Origin: Schmidtea polychroa
Taxonomy: Eukaryota
Length of the DNA stretch: 64,000 nucleotides
Direction of reading: 5' to 3'
Assembly (NCBI GenBank): GCA_044892525.1
Contig: CM097885.1
Location: forward strand, 65,348,001 to 65,412,000
Position 1 is the first letter of the stretch, and the number at the start of each line of letters is the position of its first letter. The notes under the pieces were generated by a model that saw nothing but the letters and a program-made list of their open reading frames with translations, did no database searches and was not told the DNA's origin. Below are positions 6,225 to 40,379 of this stretch, piece after piece. Both the position numbers and the translations under genes were made by a program.

Positions 6225-6600
6225 CCTTTCTTGGGTATCTGTAGCCCATTCTTGATTTCTCCATTTTCTAATAATCTGATCTAATTGTTCTGGATACCAT
6301 TCATTGTATTGTCGGTATTCCTCTGTCTCCTTTACTATATCTCTAAAATAATGGATATTTTCTGCTGCCTTTAAGATGAAGTTAGCTAGTGCTATTACTT
6401 GTCGTTTCTGGTTTTTTGCTCATGTAGCCAAGATCTTGCTCAGTTGTTTATGTTTTTCTTTCTCTTTTCGATCTCTTACTTCCTTTGTTTCCTCACTGTC
6501 CATATCGGCATATTCACGTTCCTTCTTTCTCATTGCATGTATGTCTTATTTCGGTCTCGCTTTCTGACGTGACATCCGTTTCACTTTCGTTGCCTAGTAT

Positions 6601-7170
6601 CTATTCCATTTCTTCTTCGTACTCTGGCAGTTCATCTTCCTCTTCTTCCGATTCGGTTTCCGTTTCTTCGATTTCTGTTTCTGCAATAATTCCTTTCTTG
6701 ATTTCCCATTCTTTTCTTTCTGTATTCCAGACTCTTTCCCACGGTGTCCGTCTGCAATTTCTGGTGTTCAACTTCTTTAATTCTCCGTGTAAATCTGTTT
6801 CCTTTAACCATTGCTGATAAATTCTAATTATTTCTATTGATTTGCGATATAGCGTTTTCATCATATCTCTTATTTCTCTCTGGTAGGTAATGTCTCTTGT
6901 CTGGAACTCATCCATTGGGAGTATTCTGATGATTTGATGGTTATCCCACATACCGATTTCGCCTAGCGAGATGTCGTCATCTGCTCGTAATATCATTTTG
7001 TCATACATTTTCACCACGTCGTCTATCATATCATCCTCGCTATACTTCCGTACTTTTTCCATTATTGTTTCATTTATCTTTTCCACCAGTTCACCGACTG
7101 TATTTTGATTACACATTTCCATTTGTTGTTTCTCTTCATTTGGCAACCATATCGTTATTTTCAATTTCAT
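6601..7170 (-). CDS. 189-aa element ORF with N-terminal ubiquitin-like domain and acidic tail
   Basis: MKLKITIWLPNEEKQQMEMCNQNTVGELVEKINE...KMYDKMILRADDDISLGEIGMWDNHQIIRIL resembles a beta-grasp UBL (TVGELxEKI helix; L-x-D-x-SLGE-x-G motif). Confidence 0.55.
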   Translation of the reverse strand: MKLKITIWLPNEEKQQMEMCNQNTVGELVEKINETIMEKVRKYSEDDMIDDVVKMYDKMILRADDDISLGEIGMWDNHQIIRILPMDEFQTRDITYQREIRDMMKTLYRKSIEIIRIYQQWLKETDLHGELKKLNTRNCRRTPWERVWNTERKEWEIKKGIIAETEIEETETESEEEEDELPEYEEEME

Positions 7171-7603
7171 TGGTTGTGTATCTTTTAGTCTTCCATATTT
7201 TAAGGATTAGGATAGTAGTTCTCCAACTACTCATTCTGAATAGTTCCGTATCCCGTAAGTTGCTCATGAGTTCGTACATGGCTGATGATTGCTTTTTCAG
7301 TAGTAAGTCCCAATTGTCTTTTACTTGCTCTTGGATTTGTTTGATCAATTTCTCTAAATTTCGTTTCAAGATGTATTGTTTGGTTTGTTCTAATTTCAGT
7401 TTAATGTTGAATTCGTATTCGGCTTTTGCGTCCTTAGCCCGTTCATAAATTTTAACTAGTTGTTTTTCTTTATACATTTTTAGTATTTGTGTTTCCCCTG
7501 GCCAGATCAGTGCATCTATTAAGTGCATATCAGGTTTGATCAGTTCGCCTTGATATCGATATAGGTGTTCCTTCTTCCTTGAGCCACCTAAATGCTCTTG
7601 TTA

Positions 7604-7838
7604 TGTTGAGAATTACACTTAGTTTGTGTATAATTTGTATAAGAAATCTGAAGGACCCGATAGAGTCACCGTTAAAAATATGGCGGGACAATCGGGGTGC
7701 GTGTTGTGTATGTTTACAAGTTAATAAAAAATAAAAATAGAAATAATAATAAACAATAATAACTCTTTTATTAAAATCTAAATAAAAATCCTTAGTATTC
7801 TTCTTTAAAACAATTTAATCCAACTTTTCGATTTAACA
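7604..7838. mobile_element. Short solo-LTR-like insertion inside element 1
   Basis: Starts TGTTG and ends TAACA; flanks GTTA/GTTC (3 of 4 match); the reading frame IEMNEQEHLG rejoins across it. Confidence 0.5.
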
Positions 7839-7944
7839 GTTCATTCATCTCGATTCTAGTTCTTCTTGTTCATATAGTCTTGATTCGTAATGTTAATTTT
7901 GTTATTTTAAAAATTTTCAATGTTTTATTGATTTTTTTTCTTTC

Positions 7945-7980
7945 TATAGCGATAGTTTACTATAGTAAACTATCGCTATA
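7945..7980. repeat. Perfect 36-bp palindrome
   Basis: TATAGCGATAGTTTACTA|TAGTAAACTATCGCTATA is its own reverse complement. Confidence 0.95.
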
Positions 7981-9277
7981 TAGTTTTTTTAATACTTTTT
8001 ATTTCCGCCAATTAAAAAATGTAAAATGCTACTACAGCTCTCGTATCCAATCGAACAGTTCGTCGGTGACCGTATTTTTTATCCATATTTTCTCAAGACC
8101 TTTACTTGTCCCGATTTTTATTACATAGTGCATTGTATCAACTTGTTTCATGTTTTCCATATATTTTTTTATTAGTAATTTTCCCTCATTCGGTATTACA
8201 TCCTTCTCGTTCCGTTCCAATCCCATTATTTTTTGGATAAAACGTCTGAATGGTATTAAGACAATAAACTCCTGGTTTCTACCACAGGGATTATTTCCGT
8301 TATCCGTTTTATCGCTTCTCCCTTCTCTTTTCTTGTCTTCATTTCGATATTTTCGTCTTCACTTTCACTCGTTACGTCGCTTTCGTCTTCGCTTTCATTT
8401 CTTCCGATTTTTTCTTTCAGCTGTCCGATTACTTCGTTCAGTTGCAGTTCTTCTCCACCTAAACTGCTCTCATAATCCTCGTTATCTGTTGTCGTTCTCA
8501 TCATATTAATTTGTAAATTTCTCATTTTTGCTACTTTCTTTAGTTTTTTATTTTTGAATATTGTTTCTTCGTCTGATTCCAATTCTTGTATCAGTTTATG
8601 GTTTAGGTGGCTGATTTGCTCCTCGTTTTTGTTACTTTTATTTTCCGTTTCTGTTTTGGTTTTATCATATTCCTTTTCAATTCTATCTTTTATCTTTTTC
8701 CAGAATATTTTCTGAATTCTCTGATTTCCTTTTAGTATTGGTTGAGGATTTCCGTTTTTGTCCTCTGTTTTTACTACTTTTACTGTCTCTGGTTCGGTCA
8801 TGAGTACTACACGAGGTTTTTCCCATAGTTATAACAATACTGGTTCTTCATGTCTTTTACCATTCTCATCATATTTATTCGTAGTGGTTGACTTTGTCGT
8901 TGCTGATTACGTTCTTGTTTTATTCTTTCTTCCTCCGCTTGTAGTCTTTACCATTCTTGTATATGTTGTTGTATCTCGTAATTGTTGATATTCTCTGTAC
9001 TTCTCATCATACATATATTCTGTGTTTGTTGTGGTGCTTGGTTCTGACTTGCTCGTATTAATTGTTGCATCATCGGCTTCATCTGTGAAATTTCCTGCAT
9101 GACGTTCATTTGCTTCCCCTCGCTTGGATTGTTTTGTCGCTGCGGGTTTGGTACGTAGTTATTGGTTCGTTATTTATTATTCGTGTTATTCCCATTATTC
9201 GTGTTATTACGATCATTATTGTTTCCACTTGGTTGTCCTTGCGGTTGTTTGAAAATTTGATGTGCTCCTGGTATAAA

Positions 9278-9829
9278 TTAATTCGTTTTTGGTTCTTGAT
9301 TATTGTTATATCCGTTTTCCGTTTTTGCTATTGCTGCTGTAATTCTCCCGTCTTCCTGCATGACATTCATTTGTGCCGGGAGGTGACTTTCACATCTCGT
9401 AGCCCAATCTACGGCTTCTTCCAGTGACTTGCACATTTGACATCCTACCGATGTTCTCACTTCTTCTCGGCGTAACCCTTCTATGAAATAGCCGATCAAA
9501 TTTTCTTCCCGTAATTTTCCATCCATGTCCTTCGTTGCCAATCGCCGTAATTCACTTGCGTACAACGTTATTGACTCGTTCGCCCTTTGTTTCCTACTTG
9601 CCAGTTCACCTAATGCTTGGTTGATTGGTTTGCTGGTTCCGAAGGTTTTCTTCAAAAATGTTTTTATGTTGTCCCAATTGTCTAATTTAGTATCTAGCGG
9701 CATTCTTTTGCTGATTGCTTCCGGTGTCCAACCACACACCGTTATATAAACCTCAAAATTCGTTATAAATGTTGCCAAGTTATTCGCATTCCCATTGAAT
9801 TTTTCTAAATTTTTCTTTATATTCTTCAT
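9278..9829 (-). pseudogene. Ty3/gypsy-type Gag (capsid-like) of element 1
   Basis: EKFNGNANNLATFITNFEVY..CGW, LASRKQRANESITLYASELRRLA and YFIEGL..EVR are typical retrotransposon gag segments. The frame continues past TAA stops to a degenerate knuckle CYNYGK near 8830. Confidence 0.75.
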
Positions 9830-10941
9830 TTTTCGTGATTACTGGTATATCGCTCGTCATGATTGTTTTTTGTAGTTCTACAGTTTCACTTAAATTTTTC
9901 AGCGATGTTGTTGAACTACTGACTGATAGATCTTCTGTTGATGCTGTTAGACTGTTTGCTATATCTATTATATTATTCTTGCTTCTGGATCGATTTAGTA
10001 TCTTCTCTGGTATCGGGTTTTTTTTATCCTCTGTTTAATTTTTCATTGATTTCCTTGGTCATTGTGATGATCCTCTTCTAAAATGCGTTGATCGCGATCT
10101 TTTAAGCTTCTCAAGTTGGTCTAGATTATATAAATGTTCAAACTGATTACTTGAGGATCTAAGTGCTCTTTGATTATCCGTGATTTCCTCTTGTGTTTCT
10201 TTGTCTTCTCTTGGTTCTTTCTTACTTTGTGCGGGTTCTGAATTGGTTTGTCCTAATTTGCTGCAGTGTTTCTTCGAAGTCCTTCTATGTGGGTTCTGGA
10301 TTGGCTTGACTGGGTTGATATCTACAATGAAAAAATGATACCGTGTTGCATCCGCTTACACGAATCAATCGCTCTTCTTGCAACATCCAAGCACAAACAC
10401 CTTTATGGGTTTCTATTTATGCTCCGCTTACTTTTTACCTATATCATCCCGCGGGTTATAATTACACATCATCCCGTATTTTTCGTCGATTTTAAATTAT
10501 CAATATGGGGTAGTAACAATTATCTATATGGTCGTATCAATTATCTATAATTATCATTTATAATATCAATAGGTCGTTTTCTGTTGCTACTTATTACCTC
10601 CCTCATTTTCCTAATAAACTTTTGCTCAATTTTCGCCATTTTACTTATCTTTTTATATCTAGTTCACTTATTACTCTTTACTCGGTTCTACTCTGGAACC
10701 AAAAATCAATTTTTCCCCCTTTTTCGATTTTGAACCCAAAAAATTTTATTCCATTTTCGTTGAACTTTCTCTACTTATCTGGGTTCCTCTTTTATTTATT
10801 TATTTTCTTCCTTTCTGTTGTATATTTCCATTTATCCTTTATTTTCACTATCTCATTTAATTCATTTTATTTAATAAATCAAGAAAATGTTTTACATCGG
10901 CTATTCAACTAGAAGATCCTTCATTGAGTGGCAGTCATATC

Positions 10942-11430
10942 TTAGTTGTAATAAATGACGTGTTTTTCCTTTATTTCGTATGTGCACATTGAACAATGTG
11001 TTAAGATGGTGATACATTCCTCACAACGGCTGAGGTGTCCGCGTGGTAGTATACAGAATTCTGCCAGGTCGCGTTTTACAGATGTTACATGCTCTCAATG
11101 CCGTCGTTTTCTCCTCAATTCTGGTTCGTATTTTCCCAGGCATAGTTGTAAGTTGGTCGCGTATTTTTATATATTCGGTATTTAAATCTGGGTCTTCTAG
11201 GCGTTGTTGGTACCTTTGGTAATGAGTCGGCATATCTGTGATGTTGCTGGTTTGTCCTAGTTTATCGGTTATGTAATTTTGTTTTGACACAAGCGGTGCA
11301 TCGTTGCGTTGCTGTTCTATAAGTTCTATTTGCGTAAGTTTTTCTGTTAAAGTTGCTATTGAATCTTTCTCTATGTCGATGAATTTGATCAGTTGTTGTA
11401 GATGTTGGTGTGCTTCTTACATATCTGAAT
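10942..11430 (-). pseudogene. Coiled-coil plus IAP/XIAP-type C3HC4 RING ORF
   Basis: Removing one inserted A near 11050 gives CNICKTRPGRILYLPRGHLSRCEECITILTHCSMCTYEIKEKHVIYYN*, with spacing C-x2-C-x11-(C>R)-x-H-x3-C-x2-C-x6-C-x2-C. Confidence 0.7.
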
Positions 11431-20206: not shown

Positions 20207-22561
20207 CAGGGGTCTCAAACACGCGGCCCGCAACGAAAAAACAGATTTGTAATTTAACCAAACTTATTTAACAATTAAAATCATAATTGACTGTATAAAT
20301 TAAAACTAATCTTTTTAATTATTTTTATTTATACATATGACGTCTAGTACAATTTAATAATGGCTTTATTACGTCTTTCTTATGAATCTTATCGAAAACA
20401 GTTTATTTATTTTAAAAATTATTGATTTTATTATTTAAATTAAAAAATATAAGTTATATTAAAAATACATATATTTTACATAATTTAAATTTTTGTTTAT
20501 TTTAATTTAATGTTATTTCAATCAACAAATAATAATTGGCATATTTAAAATTTTTTATACCCATCACAAAATGACTTTGTTATCTAGAAAAAGAAAACTC
20601 GTTGATGAAAGAAGGGTTTTCCAAGAGAAGTGGGAGAATTTATATTTTTTCACAGAGGCGAGAGATAAAATTCAGTGCCTTATATGCCAGCAGACTATTG
20701 CAGTACCAAAGGAGTTCAACCTTCGCCGGCACTACGACACTATGCATCGTGAAAAATATGATAAATATACTGGAAAAATTCGAGATGAAAAAGTTAACAA
20801 GCTTAAAATAGAATTTGATAAGCAACGAAACTTTTCGAATTTAAGCCAATTTGCAGAAAATTCAGTAAAAACAAGTTTTGAGCTAAGCCTGATGATAGCT
20901 GAATCATCGCGACCTTTCACAGAAGGTCCATTCATAAAAGAATGTTTTTTGAAGGCCAGCGAAATTTTAATTCCTGATAAAAAGAAACTATTCGAAAGCA
21001 TAAGTCTGTCTGCTAATACAGTTGCAAGCAGAATAACCGATTTAGCAGATAATGTGAAAAAACAATTTATTGAAAAGGCTGGAGATTTTGAAGCATTTTC
21101 GATCGCTCTTGATGAGAGTACTGATTTGGTAGATACTTCACAGTGCGCAATTTTTATAAGAGGAGTGGACAGTAAATTTAATGTAACGGAAGAATTTCTA
21201 GACTTGGTACCATTGAAGAATACCACAACGGGACGTGATTTATTTAAAGGATTGGAAGATTGTCTTGAAAAAGCTGGATTACCATGGAACAAACTTGTAT
21301 CAATGGTCACGGATGGAGCGCCAGCTATGTGTTCACAAACAATCGGTGTTGTTGGATTGGTGAAGACCAAACTACAAAGCCTCAATATACCAAATAATAA
21401 TTTCACTAGCTTACATTGCGTTGTGCACCAAGAAGCTCTGTGTAGCAAAAGTATTAAAATGATGGGTGTCATGGATGTGGTTGTGAAAACGGTCAATTTT
21501 ATACGTTCACGAGGCTTAAATCACCGACAGTTCACTTCTTTCCTAGCAAGTATAGAAAGCGAATATCGGGAAATTCTTTATTACACCGAAGTTAGATGGC
21601 TGAGTCGAGGAAATGTGCTGAATCGTTTTTTTGCACTTAGAGAAGAGATTTATTCTTTCATGAAACTCAAAAAGAATGAGGTTCCACAGCTTACTGATGC
21701 CAAGTTTATTTGCGACCTTGCCTTTCTGACAGATTTAACTGGTCATTTGAATGCATTAAATTTAAAACTTCAGGGCAAAAGACAAGTCATTACACAGATG
21801 TATGACAGTGTTAAATCATTCAAAGTCAAATTGTCTTTATTTCAAAGACAGCTTATTGTAGGCAACTTAGCCCATTTCTCAACTTTGAATTCCTTAGGAA
21901 AAGTCGAAAACCAATCCCTGAAAGAATATGCAGATATAATTTCAGATTTGCATCAACAATTTGTTTTATGTTTTAACGATTTTAAGGCACTTGAACCACA
22001 TTTTCAGCTTTTTGCAACACCATTCGCCGTTGAGATTGAAAATATAGCAGAGGAAATGCAGATGGAATTAGTAGATCTTCAGTGTGATTCCATATTGAAG
22101 CAAAAGTATTCAGATGTTGGAATTCTAGAATTTTATCAGTTTGTTTCAAAAGAAAGGTTTCCTATGTTACTTTCTGCTGCTGCAAGGATGATAGCAATGT
22201 TTGGAAGTACGTATGTTTGCGAACAATTTTTCTCTTCCATGAAAATTATCAAATCGCCATTAAGATCTAGGCTTACTGATGAACATCTGCAAGCATCTCT
22301 AAGACTGGTTTCATCACAGGACATTAAACCTAACATTGATGCCTTGGTTGATGCTAAACGATGCCAGGTAAGTGGGCAAAAGATGGATTGATTTCACAGT
22401 AACATTAATTTTAGTATTTTAATTTAAGAAAGCAGCATAATGAATGCTAAAATATTAAAATAAAATGTTTTTTAGTTTTGTTGAGTTTTTAATTAAATAA
22501 ATATTAACTTCGGTCTTTCAGACTCCACATGTTCTGGAAAACAATTATTTATGTTGCGGCC
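20207..22561 (+). mobile_element. Buster-type hAT element, left TIR present, right TIR missing
   Basis: CAGGGGTCTCAAAC-ACGCGGCCCG at 20207 after CACTAACC (TA at positions 4-5). Subterminal ATGTTGCGGCCC at about 22550 abuts the exonuclease-like fragment. Confidence 0.8.
20571..22391 (+). CDS. Intact hAT (Buster/SPIN/GTF2IRD2-like) transposase, 606 aa
   Basis: N-terminal CLIC..RRHY...H finger, ALDESTD, TDGA, HCVVHQEALC, EVRWLSRG and STYVCEQFFS; no stops or frameshifts. Confidence 0.95.
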   Translation: MTLLSRKRKLVDERRVFQEKWENLYFFTEARDKIQCLICQQTIAVPKEFNLRRHYDTMHREKYDKYTGKIRDEKVNKLKIEFDKQRNFSNLSQFAENSVKTSFELSLMIAESSRPFTEGPFIKECFLKASEILIPDKKKLFESISLSANTVASRITDLADNVKKQFIEKAGDFEAFSIALDESTDLVDTSQCAIFIRGVDSKFNVTEEFLDLVPLKNTTTGRDLFKGLEDCLEKAGLPWNKLVSMVTDGAPAMCSQTIGVVGLVKTKLQSLNIPNNNFTSLHCVVHQEALCSKSIKMMGVMDVVVKTVNFIRSRGLNHRQFTSFLASIESEYREILYYTEVRWLSRGNVLNRFFALREEIYSFMKLKKNEVPQLTDAKFICDLAFLTDLTGHLNALNLKLQGKRQVITQMYDSVKSFKVKLSLFQRQLIVGNLAHFSTLNSLGKVENQSLKEYADIISDLHQQFVLCFNDFKALEPHFQLFATPFAVEIENIAEEMQMELVDLQCDSILKQKYSDVGILEFYQFVSKERFPMLLSAAARMIAMFGSTYVCEQFFSSMKIIKSPLRSRLTDEHLQASLRLVSSQDIKPNIDALVDAKRCQVSGQKMD

Positions 22562-23543
22562 CATCACTGATTTCTTCCACTGAACTGAGTTGATGGCTGA
22601 TCTCACTGTTGCCCGTCTGAAATGCTGTCATATCCCATCTTATGACTTCCTCCCACTGTTTTTCTACTATGTTGTATATTACTTTTGGCTCGGATTTTTT
22701 GAGGATATTGTTAACTGATCTATCTTTCTTCCACTTAGGGTGTGTTGCATTTACTTTATACGCAAGATTTGAGAGCTTGATTTTATGTGGTGCTACATAT
22801 TTTACAAATGAGCACATAAATACATCCTCTGCCAGTTCCCTAACTCTCATAACATTGTATAAATCCAACGTCAATGTTTTGAGCTTTTTTATTATTTCAT
22901 ATCCAACAATGATTTTTTCCATCAATAGCTTCTGCACATCCACCAATGCCTGATATTCGCCCTAGTTTCCTCTAGTTGAATCTCTGTCTGCTTTCGTCTT
23001 TTCTAGGTAATAGTGTTGAATTTTCGTACGTGGGGTCACTTTTTTATTATATACAATTTCTCCCCTGAAGTTCATGATGCAAATCTCCATAGGTCTGAGA
23101 TTGTTATTGATGTCTCCTACTTCTTTGACATCCACAAACATGATCGCTCTTTGTCTTTCCGGAATAGATAGCTGTTGATGTGTAAATGACATTTTCTTAG
23201 ATATGAAATCCTGATGTATTGTGATTTCTGATGGAACAACTTCAAGCTCTTTGAAAGGGTTTGGTATAGTTGGGACGTACAGGATTTCAATTGCAATTAC
23301 GCAAGGTAAATTATTTATTTGTATTAGGAGATTATTGAACTCATTTGGCATGCTTCAGTTGTTTTTGAGGGTTTTGATCACCACTGCGCAATTGCTTGTT
23401 GTAATTATGGGGATTCTTTGCTGACATATTGAAACTTCGATTTTTGTAATATGAAACAATATTCTGTGAGGAACTTTTCTCCCTTCGCTTGCTTCTATGT
23501 CCGCATTTTCGAACGTGTCGTAGGTACCAATCAGATCCCGCAA
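22545..23543 (-). pseudogene. REX4/ISG20-like DEDDh exonuclease-fold ORF, copy A (catalytic residues substituted)
   Basis: One frame with only two point stops (TGA 23355, TAG 22962): FVDVKEVG..MEICIMNFRGEIVYNKKVTP..LLMEKIIVGYEIIKKLKTL..VRELA..KLSNLA..IYNIVEKQWEE. Confidence 0.6.
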
Positions 23544-23821
23544 ATTTATTCTCCTAGCCTAAATGAATTTTATTATCTGCATTTCTCTTTCTTCAATCTC
23601 ACAATTCATTTCGTTGGGGATACATACTTGATTGGGGAAGCTTCTGATGGTAATTGGTGTTCCGTCTGAGGTGTTCTTGTTTTGAAGATTTTTGTAAAAG
23701 CTATTATATAGTTTCTGAATCGAGCTCATTTTTAAATCTTACTCTATAGGGCGATTCACTTCGCGCATTATTAACAATAATGAAATGTATTGTCAAGTCA
23801 AATTATCACACAAAATCTTTT

Positions 23822-24100
23822 TTAGTTTTGCAATTTTTGGTAATTCTCTTTTGTTCCCACATATAGTCCCAACCAGGGTAGTTTTTTTTGCAAGTGAAGG
23901 ACTAGTAAAAAATTATCTGTGGTTATGTTTCTTCCATAACCTAAATATGGGTAAGTAAGTATGAGCACTACGCGTTCCACCAAATGCATGTTCGTTGTTC
24001 GCATTTCATCTTCACCCAAACATGGGAAACCATTTAATATATATTTACATTTCATGACCGATGCTAACCAGAATTTTATGCCGAATTACAATGATACCAC
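23822..24100 (-). mobile_element. piggyBac (PGBD4-like) catalytic-core fragment
   Basis: GIKFWLAS..KYILNGFP.LG..VVL.LTYPYLGYGRNITTDNF. Confidence 0.8.
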
Positions 24101-24120
24101 TAAATCATAGAAATAATTAA

Positions 24121-24790
24121 CACGTTGACGGACACAAAATATACTGAAGTTCAAAATTTCACACTGAAAGTTTTAGGTATGTGAATTGAAACTGTTACTA
24201 TAGGTGATAAAATGATTAATTTCATTAATAATTGTATTTAATTAGCCTGTGAGTATAGCCGTCTTGTCACATGATATGGGTCAGAAATATAAAATGTGAA
24301 AGGTGTTGATAGCCGTCATTCTAAAATCTTTAAAATTTTCGTATCACTACTTACGATGATGATAATGATAAAACCTAAAAAGAATCAAATTACTACCCAC
24401 ATTACTTCTTATTTGGTTGCATTTGTTTTTTCGAACATAAAAGACTACATTAGAGTAAAATAAGAATAAGTATTATAAGCACAGTAAAATAAAAATAAGT
24501 ATTCGTTAATAGTTAAACAGTTAATTAATATTAATTTTTATGCCAATCTTCGAAGCACTGGCCAGGGCATAATGGTGTAGAGTTAACACAAGTATGGCAG
24601 TACCATGATGTTTCTTCCTAAGCTTATTTTGCGTACACTGTTTACAGCGTAGGAAATATGTTATGCGTTTGTGGTTTTCAGGAACTGGTATTTTCGCCAG
24701 AAAAATGCTGAATATTGTTTCCTTCAGTTTCATTAGGTGTTGGGTTAGGAATTGAAGAGGTTGACACTTTTGTTTTGTTTTTTTTTGCAA
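24121..24790 (-). mobile_element. 3' end of a piggyBac element (Cys-rich domain plus terminus)
   Basis: TTAA at 24117-24120 followed by CACGTTGACGG; RCKQC...WYCHTC..PLCPGQCFEDWH after a frameshift. Confidence 0.7.
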
Positions 24791-24849
24791 ATAGTACTTA
24801 CTTCTATTTTAGTAATTGTTTAATAAGTATAAATATAATTACTTATTTA

Positions 24850-25328
24850 TGTTGGGTTTTATTAATTCAAGTCGGTAACCTCTGACTCCACCTGTCCTTT
24901 TAATCAAAACAATAAAATACCCAATGTATATTTGAATCAGAAAAATATATATCTCAACACAAATATTCAATTACCAAAGTTTTAAGAGTTTGGCCGATTT
25001 TCCGCTCGGTGTTGATGCTTTGACAAAAAGATAATATTCACCTTTTTATTCCCTAGCTTCTCTTGACCAACGTTTTCCTTCTACTAATTGATTTAATTCC
25101 TATCCACTGTTCTTCCTCCCATGACCAATTTTTCAGACTTAATTCGAACTTATGAATTTTTTATCGATTTTTCTCAAATCACCTTTTTTTTGCTTTTCCC
25201 ATATACTAATACACCAATTTTATTTCTACGCATTGTCAATTCTCTCCTTGACCAGTCTTACCCTTCTCTCATTCCTTTAATTACAAATATAATTCAATTT
25301 TAATTTTAATTATTTTATAACCCTAACA
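24850..25328. mobile_element. Deleted LTR related to the 19092 solo LTR
   Basis: Starts TGTTGGGTTTT and shares AAGTCGGT..CTCTGACTCC, AATCAAAACAATAA and AAAGATAATATTCACCTTTT blocks; no clean TSD. Confidence 0.65.
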
Positions 25329-25740
25329 TAAAGATTTTCGTCCTCGAAATATATATTTCGGTTTTGATACACATACACATGTCCATTCATATATCCATAT
25401 TTATTTATTTTGTGGATCAATTTTTTGCACTGTTCAAGTGTACAGCTTAGATTCATGAATCTATATTTAGGAGGTTATTTTCATTTTAATAGTTAATTCT
25501 TATTCAGTTTAAGGTTACATCAATAGATGGAAATGGTTATAGTTAAATCAATGCTCCAGATGTTCGCGAAGTTAAAAATTCCAATCTCGATTTAATTTAG
25601 ATATTTTCCAATTATAACAGAACTTTTGTTCGTCGTGATTCTGAATAAATTTTACTCAGTTATTTATTGATCTGTCGGAGTTAGCGCTAGCTGGTGTATA
25701 TTCGCTGGTGAGTTTAGTCTGATATCGTCAAAATTTAATA

Positions 25741-26663
25741 CACCTAATTCCGAAATTTAATAACTTCTATAATCTAAAAAAAAATCAATAAATATATATT
25801 ATAGGAACACACAAACTTACCTGTGTGTAGAAATTTATCATTCCGAAATTTAGTAACTTTGTTATAGGTTTTGTGAAGGTGAGAAAAAAATAACTCAACA
25901 CACCAACACAAAACACATGCAAAATTCTTATATAGGTTTTTGTTCCAAATCAAATAACTGTTAACATATTGTTAAAATATAATTATTTTAAAATTATTAA
26001 AAAATGGAAGAAAATAATTATAATTTAGACTTCAAAACTTCAATTTTTCGATTCCTAGCAAATAATTTAATATTATCAATCCAATAGAAAGCGTGTTTAG
26101 TAAAATCAAAGGCAGCATCAGAAAAGTAATATCAAGGACAAATGGATTCAGTTCAATGTCCTTCCCAAGCAGATTTGACATCGTCAAAGAAGCCATCGAA
26201 AATGAGCTGCAGAAAGAAGATTATAAAAATTTAAAAAACTATTTCGTTCATGTACGCCGATTTTTCCCTAAATGTCTTAAAAAATGTGTTTGGTGATTAA
26301 TTTTATTTATTTATAAATATAAAAATATCTAACTTACATTTTAGCGAAATAATTCCATATTAATGCATAAAATATCATAAATTTCCTAAAAAACACCTGA
26401 AATTTAATTATTAATATATTATAAATGATGACTAACAGTAATATTTAAGAACTTGAATAATGATCTCATAATTATATAAGATCAAAATTCAAGTCTTAAA
26501 ATATACTTGAAATTAAAAAAATTACCTGAAAACCATTTTTGTTGCTAATAAATTATAGAATAAATGAAATTGAGTAACTTCATTTTCACGTAAATGGTGA
26601 CTCACTCAACTGGTGTGCACACCAACGTGAATTATAGAGGTTACTCAATTTCGGAATTGGGTG
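25741..26663 (+). mobile_element. Non-autonomous Tc1/IS630-like element
   Basis: About 33-bp TIRs CACC(T/C)AATTCCGAAATT..TAAC.TCTATAAT with TA flanks; residual NPIESVFSKIK transposase C-terminus. Confidence 0.85.
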
Positions 26664-26949
26664 TATCTACTTCTTGATCGGAGATTGTTTGTCGAATTTG
26701 TGTCCTTTTGCTAAAATTTGTATTGTTATTTATATTATTTTAAAGTCACTAATTTTATTTATAGTAATTATTTAATTACTAAATATATGTTTACCTATTT
26801 AATAAAATACTATTTTTGTTTGTTTTCTAAATGTAGTAATTATTAAATACTGATAATAATTAATTTTATTTAATTCGAAAACGTTCCTAATGCATTTATC
26901 CCGGCTCCTACTGAACCCCAACATATGTATTATTTATAAATATATGATT

Positions 26950-27106
26950 CGATTTTTAAGTTATTTATAAAGAATTCTTATATTTAAATTTAATTATCGA
27001 AATTTAGAAAATATTTATTTAGAATGCCCGATTTTTAAGTTATTTAAAAAGAATTCCTATATTTAAATTTAATTATTGGAATTTAGAAAATATTTTTTAG
27101 AATGCC
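26950..27106. repeat. Tandem duplication, about 79-bp unit x2
   Basis: CGATTTTTAAGTTATTT...AGAATGCC is repeated at 26950 and 27029. Confidence 0.85.
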
Positions 27107-30100
27107 ATTATAAAACATTACAAATTATTTTAATTGCAAATAACACTGCTTTAGATGAATAAGTGGTAATCTGTTAGTATGTGAAAGAAGATGTAATGCA
27201 TTGTGTTTCGACGAAAAATAGCTCCTTGATTGGTTAAGGTTTCGAAATGACAACAGTGAATCCAGCAACATGGTTACAGTTAAAAGCAAAATGGTCAATA
27301 TATAAAAATAAACAATGGAGTCTGACAATACATGAAAAGAAATAATAGCTTGTTTTCGTATTAAAACAATGGTTATAGTTTTGTCATGAGGATTGCCCTT
27401 TAAATAAAATTTCTCTAAAATCTTAATCGTTTTCTCTATGCCATTTGTTGTTCTGCTTTGTTTTTGTTTGCTGTTGGACTTAATTTTCCTACATTTACTT
27501 AATTTTATCTTTTATTTTAGAACTCCATCGTAAAACTTGACCCTTTCATCTTTCTGTCACTAAATTTACCTCAGGATTTTCTTAGGGTTGCGCTACACGC
27601 GCCACCTCGTTCAGAATTGAAACGAACTTTTGCCTGTGTAGATTTGTCCCACAAGTTTAGAAGATTTGAAAAGCGACCTCCTCGGGGTGTAGACGAGGAT
27701 TCATGCTTCTCCATTGAAAGTTTTGTCCTATTGGAGGACTAACTTATATACATTTTAATATATAAATTTTGTTTTATTCATTTATTTTCTTTTAAAATTT
27801 AATTTTATTGATCAAAATTTTATTTTCGTTTAGCCGTTCTCTTTTGGTACTTCGAGGACGAAAGTGAGGTTTTCATTATACATTTTTATTAATCATTAAA
27901 TTATTCTAATCTACCGCATTCATCTCTACCTCCTCATTGGTAGGACATTCCTTTTCCTGCATCTGCATTCTCAACAATACGACTTCAGCTTCGTATTGGA
28001 ATAAGAGAATCTCCATTCTTTCAAGCTTTCTTTTACACATCATATCCTCTTGTTCCAAATCGTTGATTTTTCTCTCCATTGTTTTCACTTTTTTTCATTT
28101 CGTTCATTGTGTTTCGACATTCTTTCATTGATTCTTCCTCGTGGGCCTCCTGAAGTCAAATATAAATAAAATTTTCTTAAACACTATCGCACAAGGCAAA
28201 GCACACCACAGCGAAGTCCGACCAAACAAGGTAACAAATCTATATTCATATTAATCTATAACTATGCTAATTTTATAGAATTTATTTACACGCATGCAAT
28301 TTTACCATGTAGTTTCATACTGTGGTTTCGATCACATTGAAAGACTCGAGTCGTAGGTTATCTATAGTATGCTTTCTATTTCTGCACAGAATGATTTTTA
28401 TTACTATGAACACTGTCAGGATGAGTTATGGTATGTTGTAGTTCTTGAAATTTAATTATAACGTTTACTATTGTCTGTATATTAATTATTGTCGGTGTGT
28501 ATAGGAAAGATTTGTTAAAACCTAACAGTCTCCTGTAAAAATCTGTGTCGGGACTGTTAGGGTGTGTGTATGTAATGTGAAAAAAATGATAATAATAATA
28601 ATAAGAAGTGTAACAAATTTAACAAACAAAATATATTATCAAACTTTTATTAAAAAAATACTATAAGACCTTATTTAATTGGGATATTGTTAAACTTAGA
28701 ACAGACTTCGAGTATCTAGATCGTTTGTTGTTTAATCGTGAATTTAGTATATTTGGCTTTTTATAATTTTTATAATCAAGAGTGTTTTGAGTTGTTTTGT
28801 TGAATTTGGATTAAACTTTGAATATCTAGATCATTGTTGTTTAATCAGTAAATTTAATAAATCGGGATCGAAATTGCTTTTTCTGTCTTCTTGTTTTTGA
28901 ACTATTCTTTCGATTATTTAAAATATCAAATTTCCGTAATTATATCTTTCGAATTTTCTTTATAGATTTTTTGAATTTTTGTTTTAAACATTTCATTTCC
29001 CTAACACTACGGGAACAAAATGATAGGAATAAGAAAAACCTAATTGATGTTTTTTTAATACATAAAAACAATAAAAATACAACATTCTATTACAAGGTAT
29101 ATCAAAATATTCACAGATTATTAAAGTTTGACCAATCTCAGCTTGAGTCCGTTTATTTATTAACAATTAAAAATAAAATTAACAATCACCTCAAATATAT
29201 TTCAATTTGTATTGTATAAATATATATATAAATATATATATATATATATGCGTGTGTATGTGTGTGAATGTCTACAGCTTCCTGCGCTCGGATATGTAAA
29301 ATAGGTATGCTCTAAATTATATTGCAATATCAATTTCTGAATTTGCAATTCTTCTTAGAAGCGCTTATTTTTTGGGTGATTTGACTGAGAAATCCGTCGA
29401 CTTATATATGAAATATATATGTCAACACACTCTGTTCTGTTAAAGTCAATAGTATTTCTGTCTTTAAAAGTGCAGATTTTAATTGTTACTATTTCTGGAA
29501 TTATCCCTTTACCCAGCATCTTTAATGTATCTTTGTTTGTTATTTATAGACAAAATTGATAAAATATTATTAATGAATTCTAATACACATTCAATCGATA
29601 ACTGTAAGATTACATGTAAAAATAGTTCAAAAATTATATTTGATTTTAAAGTTTTAGCCCCTCTATATGATTGTCGAAAACGTGGAATCAATTATTTATC
29701 AGAAAAGTCCCAAGGAAAGTTTTGAGATTTATGCACATTTTTATATTTATTTCTAAAGCTCTAAAGCTATCATTGTTAAAAATTTATCTGTGTAACTCAC
29801 TACAAATATTGATTCATGATTATATGGATTTTTACTATTTTATTATTTTAATATAATTTTATGATTTATATTTTTTTCTCTTTATAATTTTGCCAATAAT
29901 TTTCAAACAAAAATGCACTTAGTGCGAAAATCACTGCTACCAACAATCAACCAGATGGTTGAATTTTTAATTAAAATAATAAAATAATAAGAAGAAGAAT
30001 AATAATAAGAATGACAATAACAATAATAATAACGATAATAATAATGATAAAATATTATACTGAAAAGTAACAACATATTCTGATATTTACTTGGTAATAA

Positions 30101-30356
30101 AAATCGGTTTATCTCATCAGAAATATTTTAAACAAAACTGTTGTTTAACCCAAAATAATTGCGTGTAATTTCTTAATGCTTTTTACTGATAATATTGATT
30201 TGTATATAAAATATTTAATAATAGCAACAACAATAACAATAACGATAACAATAAATAAAACAAAATAAATTTATTAATGTCATCAATTGCATCACATCAA
30301 ATTTTTAATAATACGTCAATATAATAATGTTTATTCTTTTCATCTCGTAGATACCA

Positions 30357-30647
30357 TCATTTTTGATTATTGTCTACATTTATATTTATTCTGTACCTAT
30401 TTGTTCCTATTGTATAGTATTTGAGCTTCAAAATTTTTAACGTCCTTCCATCTTCTAACATTACTCTCTGGGGCGTTAAGGTTATGTCCTCATAACCTTT
30501 TCCTACAAAATATATATCTATCTTTTTTCCTTCTTTAATTATTGTTGTTTTCTTGATATTTTTATCATATATTATTGTAATATATTCTTCCTGAATATCT
30601 TCTATTGAAATCGTAGGTTCTGGTCCTAGTTCATCTTCTTCCTCCAT
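30357..30647 (-). CDS. Acidic plus ubiquitin-like terminal ORF of element 2
   Basis: Contains PQRVMLEDGRTLK; LEDGRTL is identical to ubiquitin residues 50-56. The rest of the fold is only weakly similar. Confidence 0.4.
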   Translation of the reverse strand: MEEEDELGPEPTISIEDIQEEYITIIYDKNIKKTTIIKEGKKIDIYFVGKGYEDITLTPQRVMLEDGRTLKILKLKYYTIGTNRYRININVDNNQK

Positions 30648-30699
30648 TTGTTCTTCTTCGTCATTTATTTCCTTTTGTTCTATGATTTTTGTTTGTTCG

Positions 30700-31560
30700 C
30701 CATCTTCATTCCATTTGTATTCATCTTCATCATTATATATATATATGTGTGTGTGTGTGTTTATTCGGAGTAATTTTTTCCATTTCTCTTTCTATCGCTT
30801 GTTCCCATTCAATTTCGGTGAGAATATAGATAAGTCTGGTTATGAGGCATATATCATTGATGTTGAAGGGTTCTGGTTTCAGTAATATGTCTTTCAATTT
30901 TTTGTTTCTTTTTAAATCATTTGTATGTTTTATTACTTGAAACGCAAGATTGGATAGCTTGATTCTCCAGAATATTTTCTACGAATGTTCTCATGTATCT
31001 TTGATTCGACAGTTCCCTTATTCCCATGACTAATTGTTACACATTTTATTTTTTTGGCGATGTCAAATCCAACTATAATTTTCCCATATAAATGTCTCTT
31101 TATTTCTAATAGGGCTGCGTATTCATCCATATTACCCAAGATACTTTCTCTGTTGGCATTCGTTTTTTCCGGGAAAAATTACCTTACCTTAACTCTTGGG
31201 GTTATTTTACTTTGAAATAGACAGTCTCCTTTGTGATTTCTTATACAGACGTCTACTGATCTAAGGTTCCTATTAAAATAATTTACTGTTTTAATGTCTA
31301 CAAATACTATTTTTTCTTTTCTCTCTTCTGGTGTGAGTATTTGTTTTTGTAAAGGCTATTTTTTCTTCTATAAATATGCTATTCATTGTGATGTTTGACT
31401 AGATGGGTTCTAAACTTTTAAAAGGGTTTTATAATGTTGGAAAAAATAACATCTCGATTGCTATAACACATGGCATGTTGTGCATTTGTACAATTCTGAT
31501 GACATTTTTCTATTGTTGATTGTTTTGAAAATTATGGATATGTTATTCACTCCGATAACG
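30700..31560 (-). pseudogene. REX4/ISG20-like exonuclease-fold ORF, copy B
   Basis: MPCVIAIEMLFFPT..NPFKSLE, FVDIKTVN, HLYGKIIVGFDIAKKIK and IYILTEIEWEQ align colinearly with copy A; several stops and shifts. Confidence 0.6.
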
Positions 31561-32759
31561 CTGCCTCTTCCACTTATATTTTCTATAAGTTTGGATACTT
31601 ATCCATATTATTATTATTGTTATTAGTACTATACTAAATATTATTATATAAAAGAGCCATTTTTTGTGTAAAGGTTTTTGTTGAGGGTAAAAGAGATTTT
31701 GATATTCCCAGTTGTTAATTGTTATTTCGGGTTTGTTGAGTGGTATTTTGAGGACTTTTGATTTTTGAGGTGGTGGTGTTTTTCGAGATGTGTATTTAAT
31801 ATTTAACTCTGTTAGAATATCAGCATCTTTATCCTTTAATGACGATTCATTAGCTATGTTTTTCAGTTTCTCGGCGACGTTATTATTCTTTGATCTCTTT
31901 TCATCTAATGGTGTGGGCATTATGCATCCTATGGCTCCTCTTGGAGTTTCTTTTAAACTTGGTTTTGAAATTTCCCTATTAATTACCTCTTCATCTGAAG
32001 TGACCTCTAAGTGTCTTTTTGCTGAAACTGTTATCACATTATTTTCACTTGACTTTATTCCATAATACATTAAACAATCTTCATTTTCCATCCTCATCCC
32101 ATAAAAATATAATATTATTTCATCGTGTATTCCTAATTTATTATGCCACTTGGCTCTTGCTATTTGTTTTAATTTTTTACTTTTGTACAAGCGTGTATTC
32201 CTTTTTCATGAATAATTATTCTAGATTTATCTCTTGCATCTGTCTTTAGAGAGATCTCTAATGGTCTATGGAATCTTTCGTTTTTTCGAATATATTCACT
32301 ATAACATCTTAACATCTCCTTTATCTCGATTTCAAGTTCAAACAATTTAGTTTCTTGTTGTCTCTTCGCTAAAAGCGGTATTAAATTTCCCAGGCTCTCA
32401 AGGTCCATTCCTTCCATTTGAATTTTATTTATTATTCGTAATGTCTCACTATCATCTACTAGATAATTTTTCAAAGATTCCTCTTGTTCTTGTCTCAAAA
32501 TATTCTGTCTATCTAACTCTGCCAATAATTGTTTATTTCTTTCTCTTTGCTCTCTTAATTCTTCATTGTCTAATCTAACTTCATTTGTATACGCTTTAAA
32601 TTCATTTATTGATACATCAATTTTATTTCTTTCAATCAATCTCTCATATTTTGTCTAAATTCCTTTAATTCATCTCTCAAAATTTCAATTTAATCATTCG
32701 ATTCCTTTATTTCCATACTATTTATTTGTTTTATTTCAGGCTCTTTTTAAATTGGACTC

Positions 32760-33900
32760 TATTCGGTGATTCGACTCGTATATTTCTACATGTTTTCACC
32801 ATATGACCATATTTCTGGGAGTCAAAACACCTTATTTCCCCTCGAAAATTAACTATCTCTTCCATCATTACTAAATGGGCTAGGTCGTCTATTTCTATTG
32901 AATATCTGTTGATTGGGACTCATTCTCCTTCCTCCAAAATTGTTTCTATTTGTCTCAACATCATTTCTGTTATCTCCATTTCTATTTCTATCAAATCGAT
33001 TTGTTCGTGTTTATTCGAAATAATTATTCCTATTATTCTGATTATCACTAAAACGATTATTTTTATTATATCGATTATTTCCGAAATAACTCTCTCTATT
33101 ATAATTTCTTTGACTCATGTTATCTCGATCATAACAATTATCTCTATTATTCATGTATGTATTTCTATCATTGAACTCTGAACGACCATTATTTCGATTA
33201 TTCGATTTATCCCTTGGACTATTAAATTTATTATTGTTATCAAAATTATGACTTCTATTCTTTTTTTTCTTCTATTCTTAACATAATTAAGATCCAACTG
33301 TTTCATTTCATCCCAAGGAATGTTGTCTTTATCAATTGACTTAGTTTTATCTTTTTCCACCTGAATTTCTACTGCTTCCATCGCAGAATTATATCTATCT
33401 CTTTGTATCGCTTCAATTCTTCGTGCTTTTTGTACTAACTCATTGAGATCTCCATATTCTACCATTATCAAAGATTTATATAAATGTTTTTGAATACCAT
33501 TCCATAATTGGTCTTCTATTAATCTTGTCGTGTGTTCTCCAACAATTCAGTTAAATTATAAACATATTCACCAATTGTTTCTCTACTACCTTGATATCTA
33601 TTTCGAAATTTTTGAACATTTATTTTCTGTAAGTCTCTCGATTGCTATTTGACTTCTCAGATTCTCAACTAACTCTTCCCAATTTCTACCCTTGCACTCT
33701 AAATTATTATATGCTTGTAATGCATACCCTTTTAAATATAATGGTATCCTTCTTTTTAGCTCATCTCTTGTCCATCCACAAGCTTCCGCAAACTGGGCAA
33801 TTTTTCATGCTCTACTGGTAATGTTTTTATCAAAATAATACGATTATTATTTTCATCATCTCTATTTTGCCAAGTATGACGGATGTTATCATTATTCTCA
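32760..33900 (-). pseudogene. Gag of element 2 with degenerate CCHC knuckle
   Basis: FAEACGWTRDELKRRIPLYLKGYALQAYNNL, DLNELVQKARRIEAI, and knuckle CFDSQKYGHMVKTC at 32788-32829. Confidence 0.75.
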
Positions 33901-34002
33901 TTATTATTCGCTCATTATTGTTTGATTTCTCAATTTATATATAATTTCAGGTTGATTATCAATGTTATCACAAAAATTATTTAATTACACTTGTCCAATA
34001 AT

Positions 34003-34046
<44 letters not shown>

Positions 34047-34116
34047 CCAATTAAGATACCCTCTTATCGCAATTCCTATCCCCCGAATTGATTTATTCAA
34101 TTTTGTTTTAATTTAG

Positions 34117-34134
34117 TCCCGGTTCGCGGCACCA
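34117..34134 (-). promoter_or_regulatory. Primer-binding site, complementary to a tRNA 3' end (most like tRNA-Phe)
   Basis: Minus strand TGGTGCCGCGAACCGGGA, 2 nt from the LTR end CAACA. The tRNA assignment comes from recalled tRNA-Phe 3' ends. Confidence 0.8.
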
Positions 34135-34227
34135 AATGTTGAGGTTCTCAAATCTCAACTTGATGATTCCTATATAAATAAGAACGCAAACACTGGTTCA
34201 ATAAATTTATTAAATCATCACAATTAA

Positions 34228-34240
34228 AAATGAAGTTAAA

Positions 34241-34317
<77 letters not shown>

Positions 34318-34330
34318 TGTGTATGTGTAT
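34228..34330. repeat. (TA)n followed by (TG)-rich microsatellite; similar tracts at about 29215-29275 and 33992-34043; (AAT)n at about 34893-34947
   Basis: Directly visible. Confidence 0.95.
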
Positions 34331-34892
34331 GTGTATGTAAATGCTTGCAGCTTCCTGAGCTCGGGTGTGTAAAATAGGTATGCTCTAAATTAAATTACAA
34401 TATCAATTTCTGAATTTGCAACTCTTCTTAGAAGCTCGTATTTTTTGGGTGATTTGACTACTTATATATCAAAATTTTTGTTGACTAAATAAACATGGTG
34501 CACTTAGTGCACTGCATTAAATAAATAAGCTCAAATCGTTCAATCAATTATTTTGTGGAGTGCTATATTACAATTCTCTGATTCCAAACAGTGCACTTAG
34601 TGCACAAAATAAACCAGCACAAATATATATTCAACCAACTGGTTGATTTTAAATGAACAAATTATTAGTTTTTGTTTTTTGTCTGATAAAGTTTTAAAAG
34701 TCGTTCGGAATCCTAAATAATAAAATAGTCAATAAATTTTTTAAGAACAACAATTTGTAAATTTTTCTACTTATAATAAATTATTTAAATATATACCTTT
34801 AGCAATTTTATTTAATCAATCAAATAAAACCAAATTTTCAGTTGTGTTTATGAATTTTTAGAAAAATCAATATATTATTATTAATAATCATG

Positions 34893-34947
<55 letters not shown>

Positions 34948-35279
34948 GTAACAACTAGCAGATAATAACGCTCACAAAAATAAGTATAAGAATATATTAG
35001 TATTATTCATAAAAATATAATATATCTCCAAGAACCAATAAATCAATATAATTGTATAAATAGATAAATTAACAGATCACATCAAATTGTTAATAATAAG
35101 TTATCACAATTGTAGTGATTTTTACACAGCGTTCTTAATAAAAAAGGAAAAAAACATGATCGTTTTATTTTCAAAAAAATTTCTAAAAATAAACATTTAT
35201 GTTAAACTTGTTTAAATAATCAGTTTTTTGATTCTTAAAAACAAATTATAATAATCTTAATATTTTTTAATAATTGATT

Positions 35280-35858
35280 ATGAATTATATTATTAATGAT
35301 TGGTTCACGGAATATTCCGATGGATGGGTTGGACAAGCTATGAGCCTGAAAATAAAAGAGATTCTAGAAAGTAAAGTAACCAAATTTCAAGATTTATTAA
35401 TTTTTGAAAGTCATGGGAAAGTTCTAGTATTAGATGGTATTATTCAATTAACAGAAAGAGATTAATTTCTATATCAGAAAATGACATCAATGTTACTGTT
35501 GAGTTCTCATCCTAATCCACAAAATATATTAATAATCGGTGGTGGTGACGGCGGAGTGATGCGCGATGTAGCTGAGTACAATAAAGTTAAAAAAATTATC
35601 CAATGCGAATTTGACGAAGAAGTTGTCAACTTGAGTAAGAAACACTTGCCATTCATGGCAGTTGGATATGATAATGATAAAGCAATTTTGACAATTTCTT
35701 AGGGCTTCGAGTTCCTCAAACAACGCAAAAATGAATTCGATATCATCATAACCGATAGCACTGACCCACAAGGCCCAGGCAAAGTTCTTTTTCAATCGAC
35801 TTATTTTCAGATGATTTATGAATCTCTGAAATCCGATGGAATTATGTGTTCTCAAGGA
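35280..35858 (+). pseudogene. SRM: Spermidine synthase pseudogene, intronless and 3'-truncated
   Basis: WFTE, KVLVLDGIIQLTERD*F, HPNPQNILIIGGGDGGV, CEFDEEVV, FDIIITDSTDPQGP and LKSDGIMCSQG; in-frame TAA (35463) and TAG (35700). Confidence 0.88.
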
Positions 35859-36136
35859 GTATTTCAAATTAGAATGAAAATCTTGGCCTGCATTTCTTTA
35901 TTAATATTACTTATGGCATTTTTGTTCAATACCAATTATGTGGCCGATTTATTTCTACCCTATATGCAAAATGTAACCTTGAAAGAAATGTGGAGTTATC
36001 AAGATATCAATTCTTTATACATCATCGAAATTGTTATTAAAGTTCCTAACTCAACCTTAGTTAATATGAAAAGTCGTTCGGAAAATCGTATTGTTCCCAC
36101 CTATATTATTAAATTCGAATTTCCTGGATGGATTTA

Positions 36137-36744
36137 CAGGGTTATTCAAATCTATATACCCATTTATGCAAATCAATATCCTTATTTATGCAAATCTATA
36201 TGCCCATTTAATAAAAACATATAAATATAAGGGTTGAGAGATAAAAAATTAAAAACGCCATAAATATATTTCAAAGGATCATTTATTATAAAAATTGTTC
36301 CCTTCTGAACATCTCTGGAATGATGAAACTTTGCATTGTCCATTACCAGAAATTCGCCTGGGTTTTTCCGAAAGTAGGGAATTAGATGTTCACGTATAAA
36401 CTCGATAAATAGAGATTGGTTGTATGAACCAGTTCGATATTGATAGACAACTATACCATTTATACCAATCACACACATTAAACTTTTATTCACATTTCTG
36501 TTAGCAGGAACTTGGATAAAAGCTTTTGTGTTTATAGGAGAATACCTGTATGCCCTACTTGTGTGCAGATTGAATCCTGTTTCGTCAAGAAATACCAGGT
36601 TTTCATCACTTATCATTAAAATTTCAGATGCATATATAAACTTTTAATTAAAAAGGTATATTGATTTGCATAAATGGGGATATAGATTTGCATAAAGAAG
36701 GATATAGATTTGCATAAATGGGTATATAGATTTGCATAACCCTG
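36137..36744 (-). mobile_element. Internally deleted IS630/Tc1-like (DDE_3) element
   Basis: TA flanks; TIRs CAGGGTTAT(T/G)CAAATCTATATACCCATTTATGCAAATC built from about 21-bp repeats; ORF LVFLDETGFNL...LVMDNAKFHH. Confidence 0.9.
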
Positions 36745-36902
36745 TAATGTAGATTATTTGAATAAGATTCGACGTGGTTTCACAACAATCTAAGGCTCGC
36801 AGATTCAATTTTGTCATGTCAAACCGATCGTAAAATCAACTTTAAACATTTTAGTCATGGTTTCAAATAGTCCATCAGGACTCCATTCCGTCCAAACTAC
36901 AA

Positions 36903-37045
36903 CAACAATAATGTTTATTCTTTTCATCACATAGATACCATCATTATTGATTATTGTCCACATGTATATTTCTGTACCTATTTGTTCCTATTATGTAGTA
37001 TTTGAGCTTCAAAGTTTTTAACATTCTTCCATCTTCTAACAAAAG
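36903..37045 (-). mobile_element. Second copy of the 3' end of element 2 (UBL tail, purine tract, TGTTG)
   Basis: LLEDGRMLKTLKLKYYIIGTNRYRNIHVDNNQ*; the nucleotide sequence is close to 30324-30462. Confidence 0.85.
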
Positions 37046-39224: not shown

Positions 39225-40196
39225 CTACATAAAATTACACTTTGAAAAATTGTTGAACAATCTATTTTTCATTCCGGAATAAACATAAACGAGAAAGTTT
39301 AATACCGAATCCAACGACGAGAGCAAACTTGCGATATCGGTAAAGTGATTTAATTGGTTCTTATTGCCGATTACGTCGGCATGTTGATCAATGAACATTA
39401 CTACAACCGTGCAACTTTTCGGCAGTTCGCAAATCATGAAAATTCCACATAGAATCAAAACAGTTTTTGTAGAAAAATTATTATTTAAATTTTGATCACG
39501 AGAAAATTGTCGGTCCCGAAATTTTAATACGAATATAATAGAGATACTACAGATCGCTATTATAACTGCTGGTATTGGACTGATTGCAATAAAATAAAAA
39601 GGTAAGTAGAAAAACGTATACCAAACAAAATTGGTATGATTATTTAAATGGAATTTCACTTTACCCGTTTTACCGACGGTTATTCGAGACTCAAATATTC
39701 TTGGAATGTTTAAAATAAGACTCGATACTAAAATAATTATTAAATGTTTTGCGATAGTTTTTCTGTTAATTGATTGAGATTTCAATGGATGACTGATCAC
39801 TAGACATCGGATCCATGCAATATACGCAATCGTCCAATTGCGGCTGACTAAGAATATTCTAGAAATATTCCTGATTACGTGAACAATAAAGTTGATGCCG
39901 ATTGACGAAAAAATAGTCGTAGAAACAGGTCGATGGAGTAGCCTAGTGTTATAGAAAAACAATTGATTTATAAAAAATGTCAACCCGTAGACGCTTTCAA
40001 TAATTGATAGAATGTAAATCAAAGTTAGAAAGTTACCTTTTTGACGGATTCTATGGAAAAAGATTGCCGAAAGGAAGTTGAGAATGAAACCAATTAATAC
40101 GATTACCAGTACAGCGACCGTAAAGCTGATTTGAATGGATTTCTCTCTGTATTTGTCCTGTAATGAACAATTGGAAACTTCTGTTGTGTTATTCAT
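39225..40196 (-). CDS. Class A GPCR, peptide-receptor-like (FMRFamide/myosuppressin-receptor type), 323 aa, single exon
   Basis: Seven hydrophobic segments; GFILN, WIRCLVISHPL, LNIPRIFE, FMICELP and SVLNFLVY. Confidence 0.88.
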   Translation of the reverse strand: MNNTTEVSNCSLQDKYREKSIQISFTVAVLVIVLIGFILNFLSAIFFHRIRQKGNFLTLIYILSIIESVYGLTFFINQLFFYNTRLLHRPVSTTIFSSIGINFIVHVIRNISRIFLVSRNWTIAYIAWIRCLVISHPLKSQSINRKTIAKHLIIILVSSLILNIPRIFESRITVGKTGKVKFHLNNHTNFVWYTFFYLPFYFIAISPIPAVIIAICSISIIFVLKFRDRQFSRDQNLNNNFSTKTVLILCGIFMICELPKSCTVVVMFIDQHADVIGNKNQLNHFTDIASLLSSLDSVLNFLVYVYSGMKNRLFNNFSKCNFM

Positions 40197-40379
40197 TTTG
40201 AGAGTTCAATTAATGATTAAACGTTTAAATAGTCGACAATTAATTTTAGATCATTTGATCATTATCTTAATGATTCTTGCGCAGTGTAAATATAATTTAT
40301 ACGATAATATTATTTATTAGGAAATAATTGGCCGGTTTGATTTTGTAAAAAAAGTTTATTTATATATTGAAATATATTC

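Follow-up and report, generated by a model that had tools for sequence, protein, structure and literature searches.

The window analysed here, a stretch of 64,000 nucleotides of AT-rich DNA from Schmidtea polychroa, carries on its minus strand two relics, copies A and B (Table 1), of a protein with a DEDDh exonuclease fold. Both are broken copies of ORF2 (open reading frame 2), an accessory gene of a gypsy element that is bounded by long terminal repeats (LTRs) and bears an envelope gene (env), and neither codes for a protein now. The family to which they belong, called dead below, qualifies from its sequences and predicted structure as a DEDD pseudonuclease, the fold being kept and the catalytic residues lost under purifying selection. 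The preliminary description of the window had missed that A and B are relics of a retroelement ORF2 with catalytically intact sister families.

The two copies are colinear by tblastn (53% identity over 49 amino acids, 43% over 106 and 34% over 62; E = 4e-39), as had been claimed, and the motifs then quoted lie at the places given for them, including D-V-K and D-I-K at ExoI and the lysine at ExoII, all on the minus strand. The limits had to be redrawn from 22545-23543 for A and 30700-31560 for B to those of Table 1, and both copies are interrupted: A keeps to one frame but has three stops and has lost 10 codons across ExoIII, and B is spread over three frames with frameshifts and stops. The PCVIAIE..NPF stretch, taken earlier for a domain of its own, is present in both and represents the last strand and linker of an N-terminal domain of about 160 amino acids. 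The losses at the ExoI Glu and the ExoII Asp stand, and to them must be added that of ExoIII (His to Phe, Asp to Thr), which had been omitted. Copy A is flanked by a hAT transposase gene (20511-22391, plus strand) on one side and a piggyBac-like fragment on the other. Copy B sits inside an internally deleted element of the ORF2-bearing kind (29195-37041); further internally deleted elements retaining gag and ORF2 are L040, in which gag, Bcl-2 and ORF2 share one 1673-codon frame between LTRs 97.6% identical, and L046.

Table 1. Copies A and B of ORF2 and the parts of the element around copy B, in window positions
Feature	Position	Strand	Remarks
Copy A	22554..23723	-	isolated ORF2 relic, residues 26-423 of 626; 81% identity to an open copy
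Copy A, N-terminal double-stranded beta-helix (2-oxoglutarate (2OG)-oxygenase-like) domain	23280..23723	-	PCVIAIE strand is its end
Copy A, PCVIAIE	23306-23286	-	
Copy A, ExoI	23118..23141	-	D-V-K instead of D-x-E
Copy A, ExoII	22881..22904	-	GYEIIKK, Lys at ISG20 Asp94 position
Copy B	30363..31547	-	ORF2 relic without about the first 110 codons; 3' end enters 3' LTR
Copy B, PCVIAIE	31473-31453	-	
Copy B, ExoI	31284..31307	-	D-I-K
Copy B, ExoII	31047..31070	-	GFDIAKK, Lys at catalytic Asp position
Copy B, ExoIII region	30826..30879	-	PEPF...IY helix; neither His nor Asp in catalytic register
Element B, 3' LTR	29195..30460	-	85-91% identity to 5' LTR in the two longest alignable pieces; end not recognisable
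Element B, polyprotein end with transmembrane segment	31549..31806	-	abuts post-gag sequence through internal deletion of env and pol
Element B, broken gag and post-gag region	31822..33969	-	
Element B, primer-binding site	34117..34134	-	adjoins 5' LTR
Element B, 5' LTR	34135..37041	-	interrupted by insertion of about 1.8 kb (36906-35100)

A search of the 781-Mb genome assembly with copy A gave at least 144 matches (best 143 of 1123 candidates scored), mostly stop-free in the matched stretch, and many of those listed lie in frames of 722 or 777 codons. The surroundings of six open copies are LTR elements, five of them with LTR pairs 97.2-100% identical, and the fullest measures 13.4 kb. Their polyprotein reads, in a single frame, gag, CCHC, Bcl-2, a Monjiviricetes fusion protein (env), protease, reverse transcriptase, RNase H and integrase, and no Pfam match to MATH or BIR was obtained in the polyprotein pieces scanned. 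ORF2, about 626 amino acids counted from the Met, lies 3' of pol and overlaps the 3' LTR. With its LTRs, primer-binding site and one-frame polyprotein the parent is a Burro-like env-bearing gypsy element. In the element L032 the polyprotein continues in frame past the integrase with a hydrophobic leader, a fibronectin type III (FN3)-like segment and a transmembrane helix, and this part diverges faster than pol. Comparison of two dead-family subfamilies, L032 against L036 and L049, gives 97-100% amino acid identity in gag-env-pol and 63% in ORF2, with a divergent LTR U3, a pattern that on the evidence of the sequences is that of a 3' cassette exchange of ORF2.

A live sister family in the same genome has D-x-E, E and H-x4-D at the catalytic sites, matches ISG20L2 at E = 7.5e-11 and is represented by at least 150 genomic matches at 94-100% (best 150 of 1275 candidates scored, all matching). 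The alignment of this family with ISG20 fixes the ExoIII register, in which we tallied the 94 dead-family loci fetched, A, B and some tandem duplicates among them. The ExoI Asp is D in 84 of the 94 and E in eight; the ExoI Glu site is K in 79 and R in 12, the ExoII site is K in 93, and neither is ever acidic. At ExoIII, 90 copies have F for the His and 85 have T for the last Asp, and none has H or D at either site. The equivalents of ISG20 E13, D94, H149 and D154 are thus K, K, F and T, so that four of the five catalytic residues are lost, and the preliminary description's own counter-case, that most copies would retain the DxE, D and H-x4-D set, is found in none of the 94. Since single Asp mutants of ISG20 lose exonuclease activity (PMC7756014), it is a safe inference that canonical catalysis is lost in the dead family. 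Elsewhere in the domain 26 live and 27 dead rows agree without exception at P256, R257, D280, G318 and R320, and E281 is conserved more in the dead rows (85%) than in the live ones.

The dead family is under purifying selection and not in decay. Over 186 codons of eight subfamily representatives (28 pairs), pS (the proportion of synonymous differences) is 0.67-0.87 and pN (its nonsynonymous counterpart) 0.12-0.36; dS is saturated in 16 pairs, and in the other 12 dN/dS is 0.06-0.28, far from the value near 1 that would have contradicted the earlier proposal of selection. The N-terminal domain has a pN as low as that of the exonuclease domain. The argument first advanced for selection, from the lysines common to A and B, does not hold. 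In trees built without the five motif columns all D-K-K-F-T rows form a single clade, long-stemmed and with support 99, so that A and B record a single event; their lysines being one inherited event, the case for selection on these residues rests on the eight-subfamily comparison. There, 43 of the 186 columns are invariant, yet just two of the 20 lysines are, including K305 of the ExoII site; at the ExoI site Lys has given way to Arg along two different codon paths, and AAA and AAG are exchanged at both sites.

The fold assigned earlier, of the ISG20/REX4 type, is supported by profile matches and comparison of the predicted structure. A profile built from dead-family copies alone matches ISG20L2 (E = 1.1e-5) and ISG20 (E = 0.0076), a Lys of the family facing their ExoII Asp, and comparison of sequence and fold points to a DnaQ/RNase T fold with ISG20 closest. 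The protein is predicted to consist of an oxygenase-like beta-helix and a DEDDh domain, which pack in one confident model (predicted template modelling score, pTM, 0.91). The N-terminal domain, of double-stranded beta-helix fold, has no aligned H-x-D/E...H iron triad (no position shows the motif in more than three of 47 rows). Live and dead rows alike conserve a set of residues particular to this domain, P61 (47/47), N62 (45/47), H116 (44/48) and E171 (45/52).

A full profile search recovered 94 proteins, of which the 91 placed in a tree comprise 38 intact, 9 partial and 44 altered forms, a few of the last shortened or poorly aligned. K or R occupies the ExoI Glu site in 21 of the 44 altered proteins. 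A further form in this genome, D-T-K-L-K (L186:805-2577; G000:C1:206877108, 206979316), is dead, open over 591 codons and present in two identical copies; nothing else in the genome exceeds 39% identity to it, and it is nested among intact rows with support 88, so it may represent a separate loss or a domesticated gene. Genomic context among public relatives was obtained for L174 alone (L174:6861-9923, a metagenome contig), a gypsy element in which two tandem DEDDh ORFs follow pol. One is dead, with S-R-Q in place of the first three catalytic residues, and the other retains the full D-E-D-H-D set; ankyrin, FN3-like and transmembrane parts make up the end of pol in this element.

As to expression, a junction is seen in one contig of run X1, a run taken by guess to be RNA, where an exon from elsewhere meets the AG that stands four bases ahead of the ATG of ORF2 (L007:1051-1057). 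In the genome that exon is followed by a canonical donor, AG/GTAAT, in all four places fetched, and 27 of the 29 close copies checked have a T-rich acceptor of this form. An unrelated repeat, about 1.2 kb long, carries the donor; one of these donors stands about 19.5 kb upstream of a truncated copy on C2. These data suggest that the acceptor can be used and that ORF2 has a spliced message, the donor observed belonging to the other repeat and not to the element itself.

The insertion in the 5' LTR of element B contains a broken spermidine synthase coding piece (35274-35860, plus strand), intronless over about 190 codons and with 11 genomic matches, adjoined by a Tc1-like element with inverted repeats (36134-36747). 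The window also contains a further decayed gag-bearing element, several frames of which have no assignment (6600-11400, minus), a long single-frame RBM39-like gene (56863-58311, plus) and two frames of rhodopsin-family G protein-coupled receptors (52027-53010, plus; 39228-40205, minus).

We propose, at somewhat better than even confidence, that the dead ORF2 is a pseudo-exonuclease which binds RNA without cutting it and shields the element RNA from host surveillance. ORF2 would be expressed from a spliced subgenomic RNA, metal-dependent 3'-5' cutting would not take place, and two Lys or Arg side chains would replace the two metal ions and grip the RNA phosphates. The bound RNA could be the ends of the element RNA, protected from exonucleases or from surveillance by PIWI or through double-stranded RNA (dsRNA), or else small RNAs that are sequestered. 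We infer nucleic-acid binding from the fixed basic residues only, and several observations weigh against the proposal. With a net charge of +3 to +8, compared with 0 and +3 in live forms, the dead domain is just mildly more basic. The His-Gly pocket motif, which live enzymes keep with few exceptions or none, has given way to other residues in the window's family, so that the 3'-end pocket is remodelled and may fail to hold RNA. At ExoII, altered proteins of the wider family more often have Q (10/44) than K (7/44). Young and abundant elements occur with a live ORF2 as well as with a dead one, so that neither state is required, and since Glu becomes Lys by a single G-to-A transition, in an AT-rich genome, selection need not be invoked for how the lysines arose.

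The remodelled pocket would also suit a protein decoy or scaffold that binds, regulates or blocks a host partner or a live exonuclease, either a host REX4-like one or that of sister elements, with no need of RNA. The tandem dead and live paralogues of L174, the hundreds of live-enzyme elements in the same genome, the Bcl-2-like host mimics in the same polyproteins and the exchange of ORF2 cassettes on a near-identical backbone, as conflict would predict, all point the same way; however, in the window's family no live enzyme accompanies the dead one in cis, and basic residues fixed in a buried former metal site are more easily explained by phosphate contact, so we regard a decoy as rather unlikely. 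Selection might instead act on the fold and the N-terminal beta-helix, the exonuclease domain being kept as half of a compact unit and the lysines filling the empty metal site. The packing of both domains in a single model (pTM 0.91) and the conserved set and equally low pN of the N-terminal domain agree with this, but dead rows never depart from Arg at the surface positions R257 and R320, and the ExoI Glu site admits Lys to Arg and almost nothing else, the latter speaking for charge and not for space filling; we hold such a role improbable. Insect Maelstrom reportedly has nuclease activity through a new active site, and in ORF2 the invariant D280, the better conservation of E281 in dead rows and the ExoI Asp retained in 84 of the 94 copies could be read likewise; yet one subfamily has Glu for this Asp and most other dead lineages have lost it, the domain has gained no cluster of His or Cys, and we give a non-canonical nuclease little credence. 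Random decay of a hitch-hiking gene, suggested by the broken state of A and B, is next to impossible for the family, whose best-scoring genomic copies are mostly stop-free in the matched stretch with long open frames and whose dN/dS between subfamilies is far below 1; it is true only of A and B after integration. Beyond the shielding of RNA by the dead ORF2, a broader and doubtful possibility is that a lineage of enveloped invertebrate retroelements carries an anti-silencing toolkit, in which an ISG20/REX4 exonuclease, acquired by capture, is joined to an AlkB-like oxygenase fold that has been disarmed. The live form would trim immunogenic or guide RNA; the dead form, its charge reversed, would have arisen repeatedly, would move between elements as a cassette and would cap or sequester RNA against the host's defence by Piwi-interacting RNA or dsRNA.

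Among animal LTR elements, few cases are known of a counter-defence protein that the element itself encodes. Here one two-domain protein occurs as an intact enzyme and as a dead form kept by selection, a natural matched pair of which both members lie in young abundant elements. It is also a clean case of an enzyme turned pseudoenzyme, the metal ligands being replaced by basic residues. The occurrence of the pair in a planarian, a group in which PIWI control of such elements is already studied, makes the function of retroelement exonucleases directly testable.

Planarian Burro elements are giant gypsy elements with one polyprotein and env in frame between gag and pol (PMC6431247), and they are silenced by PIWI (PMC8532177). 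The element described here shares their one-frame order from gag and CCHC through Bcl-2 and env to integrase, but at 13.4 kb, with 1.07-kb LTRs and no MATH or BIR match in Pfam among the pieces scanned, it differs from Burro, which exceeds 30 kb and for which that account names no DEDDh ORF (PMC6431247). In literature searches that included passages of PMC13524379 and PMC8532177 we found no ISG20-type, oxygenase-fused or dead exonuclease in retroelements; that search did not extend to the first description of Burro with its supplements, which may bear on this. Exonuclease ORFs occur in LTR elements and Terminons of bdelloid rotifers, where ORF3 is an RNase D-like DEDDy enzyme with intact catalytic residues (PMC5408684; see also PMC6338049). 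As in that case, ORF2 is a DnaQ-family exonuclease placed as an accessory ORF after pol, and the DEDD to DEED change of rotifer ORF3 recurs in many live relatives here; unlike it, ORF2 is DEDDh and ISG20/REX4-like, its live relatives having H-x4-D, is fused to an oxygenase-like domain and exists in live and dead forms. ISG20, ISG20L2 and REXO4 are the best match in fold and sequence, relative to which ORF2 has an insertion before ExoIII and the additional N-terminal domain; the latter shares its fold with 2OG-Fe(II) oxygenases such as prolyl-4-hydroxylase and the AlkB homologues and lacks their iron motif. DEDD pseudonucleases known from hosts, Exuperantia (PMC5785220), PML PXL (PMC13659232), Maelstrom and EXD1 (PMC5408684), are host genes with demonstrated binding, the first two serving as precedents for the mechanism proposed; ORF2, by contrast, belongs to an element, descends from an ISG20-type enzyme and is a putative binder. 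Finally, arenavirus nucleoprotein and coronavirus nsp14 ExoN use DEDDh domains, catalytically active and separate in origin, to conceal RNA from the sensors of the host (PMC13483370), and by analogy a similar role is plausible for the live sister ORF2.
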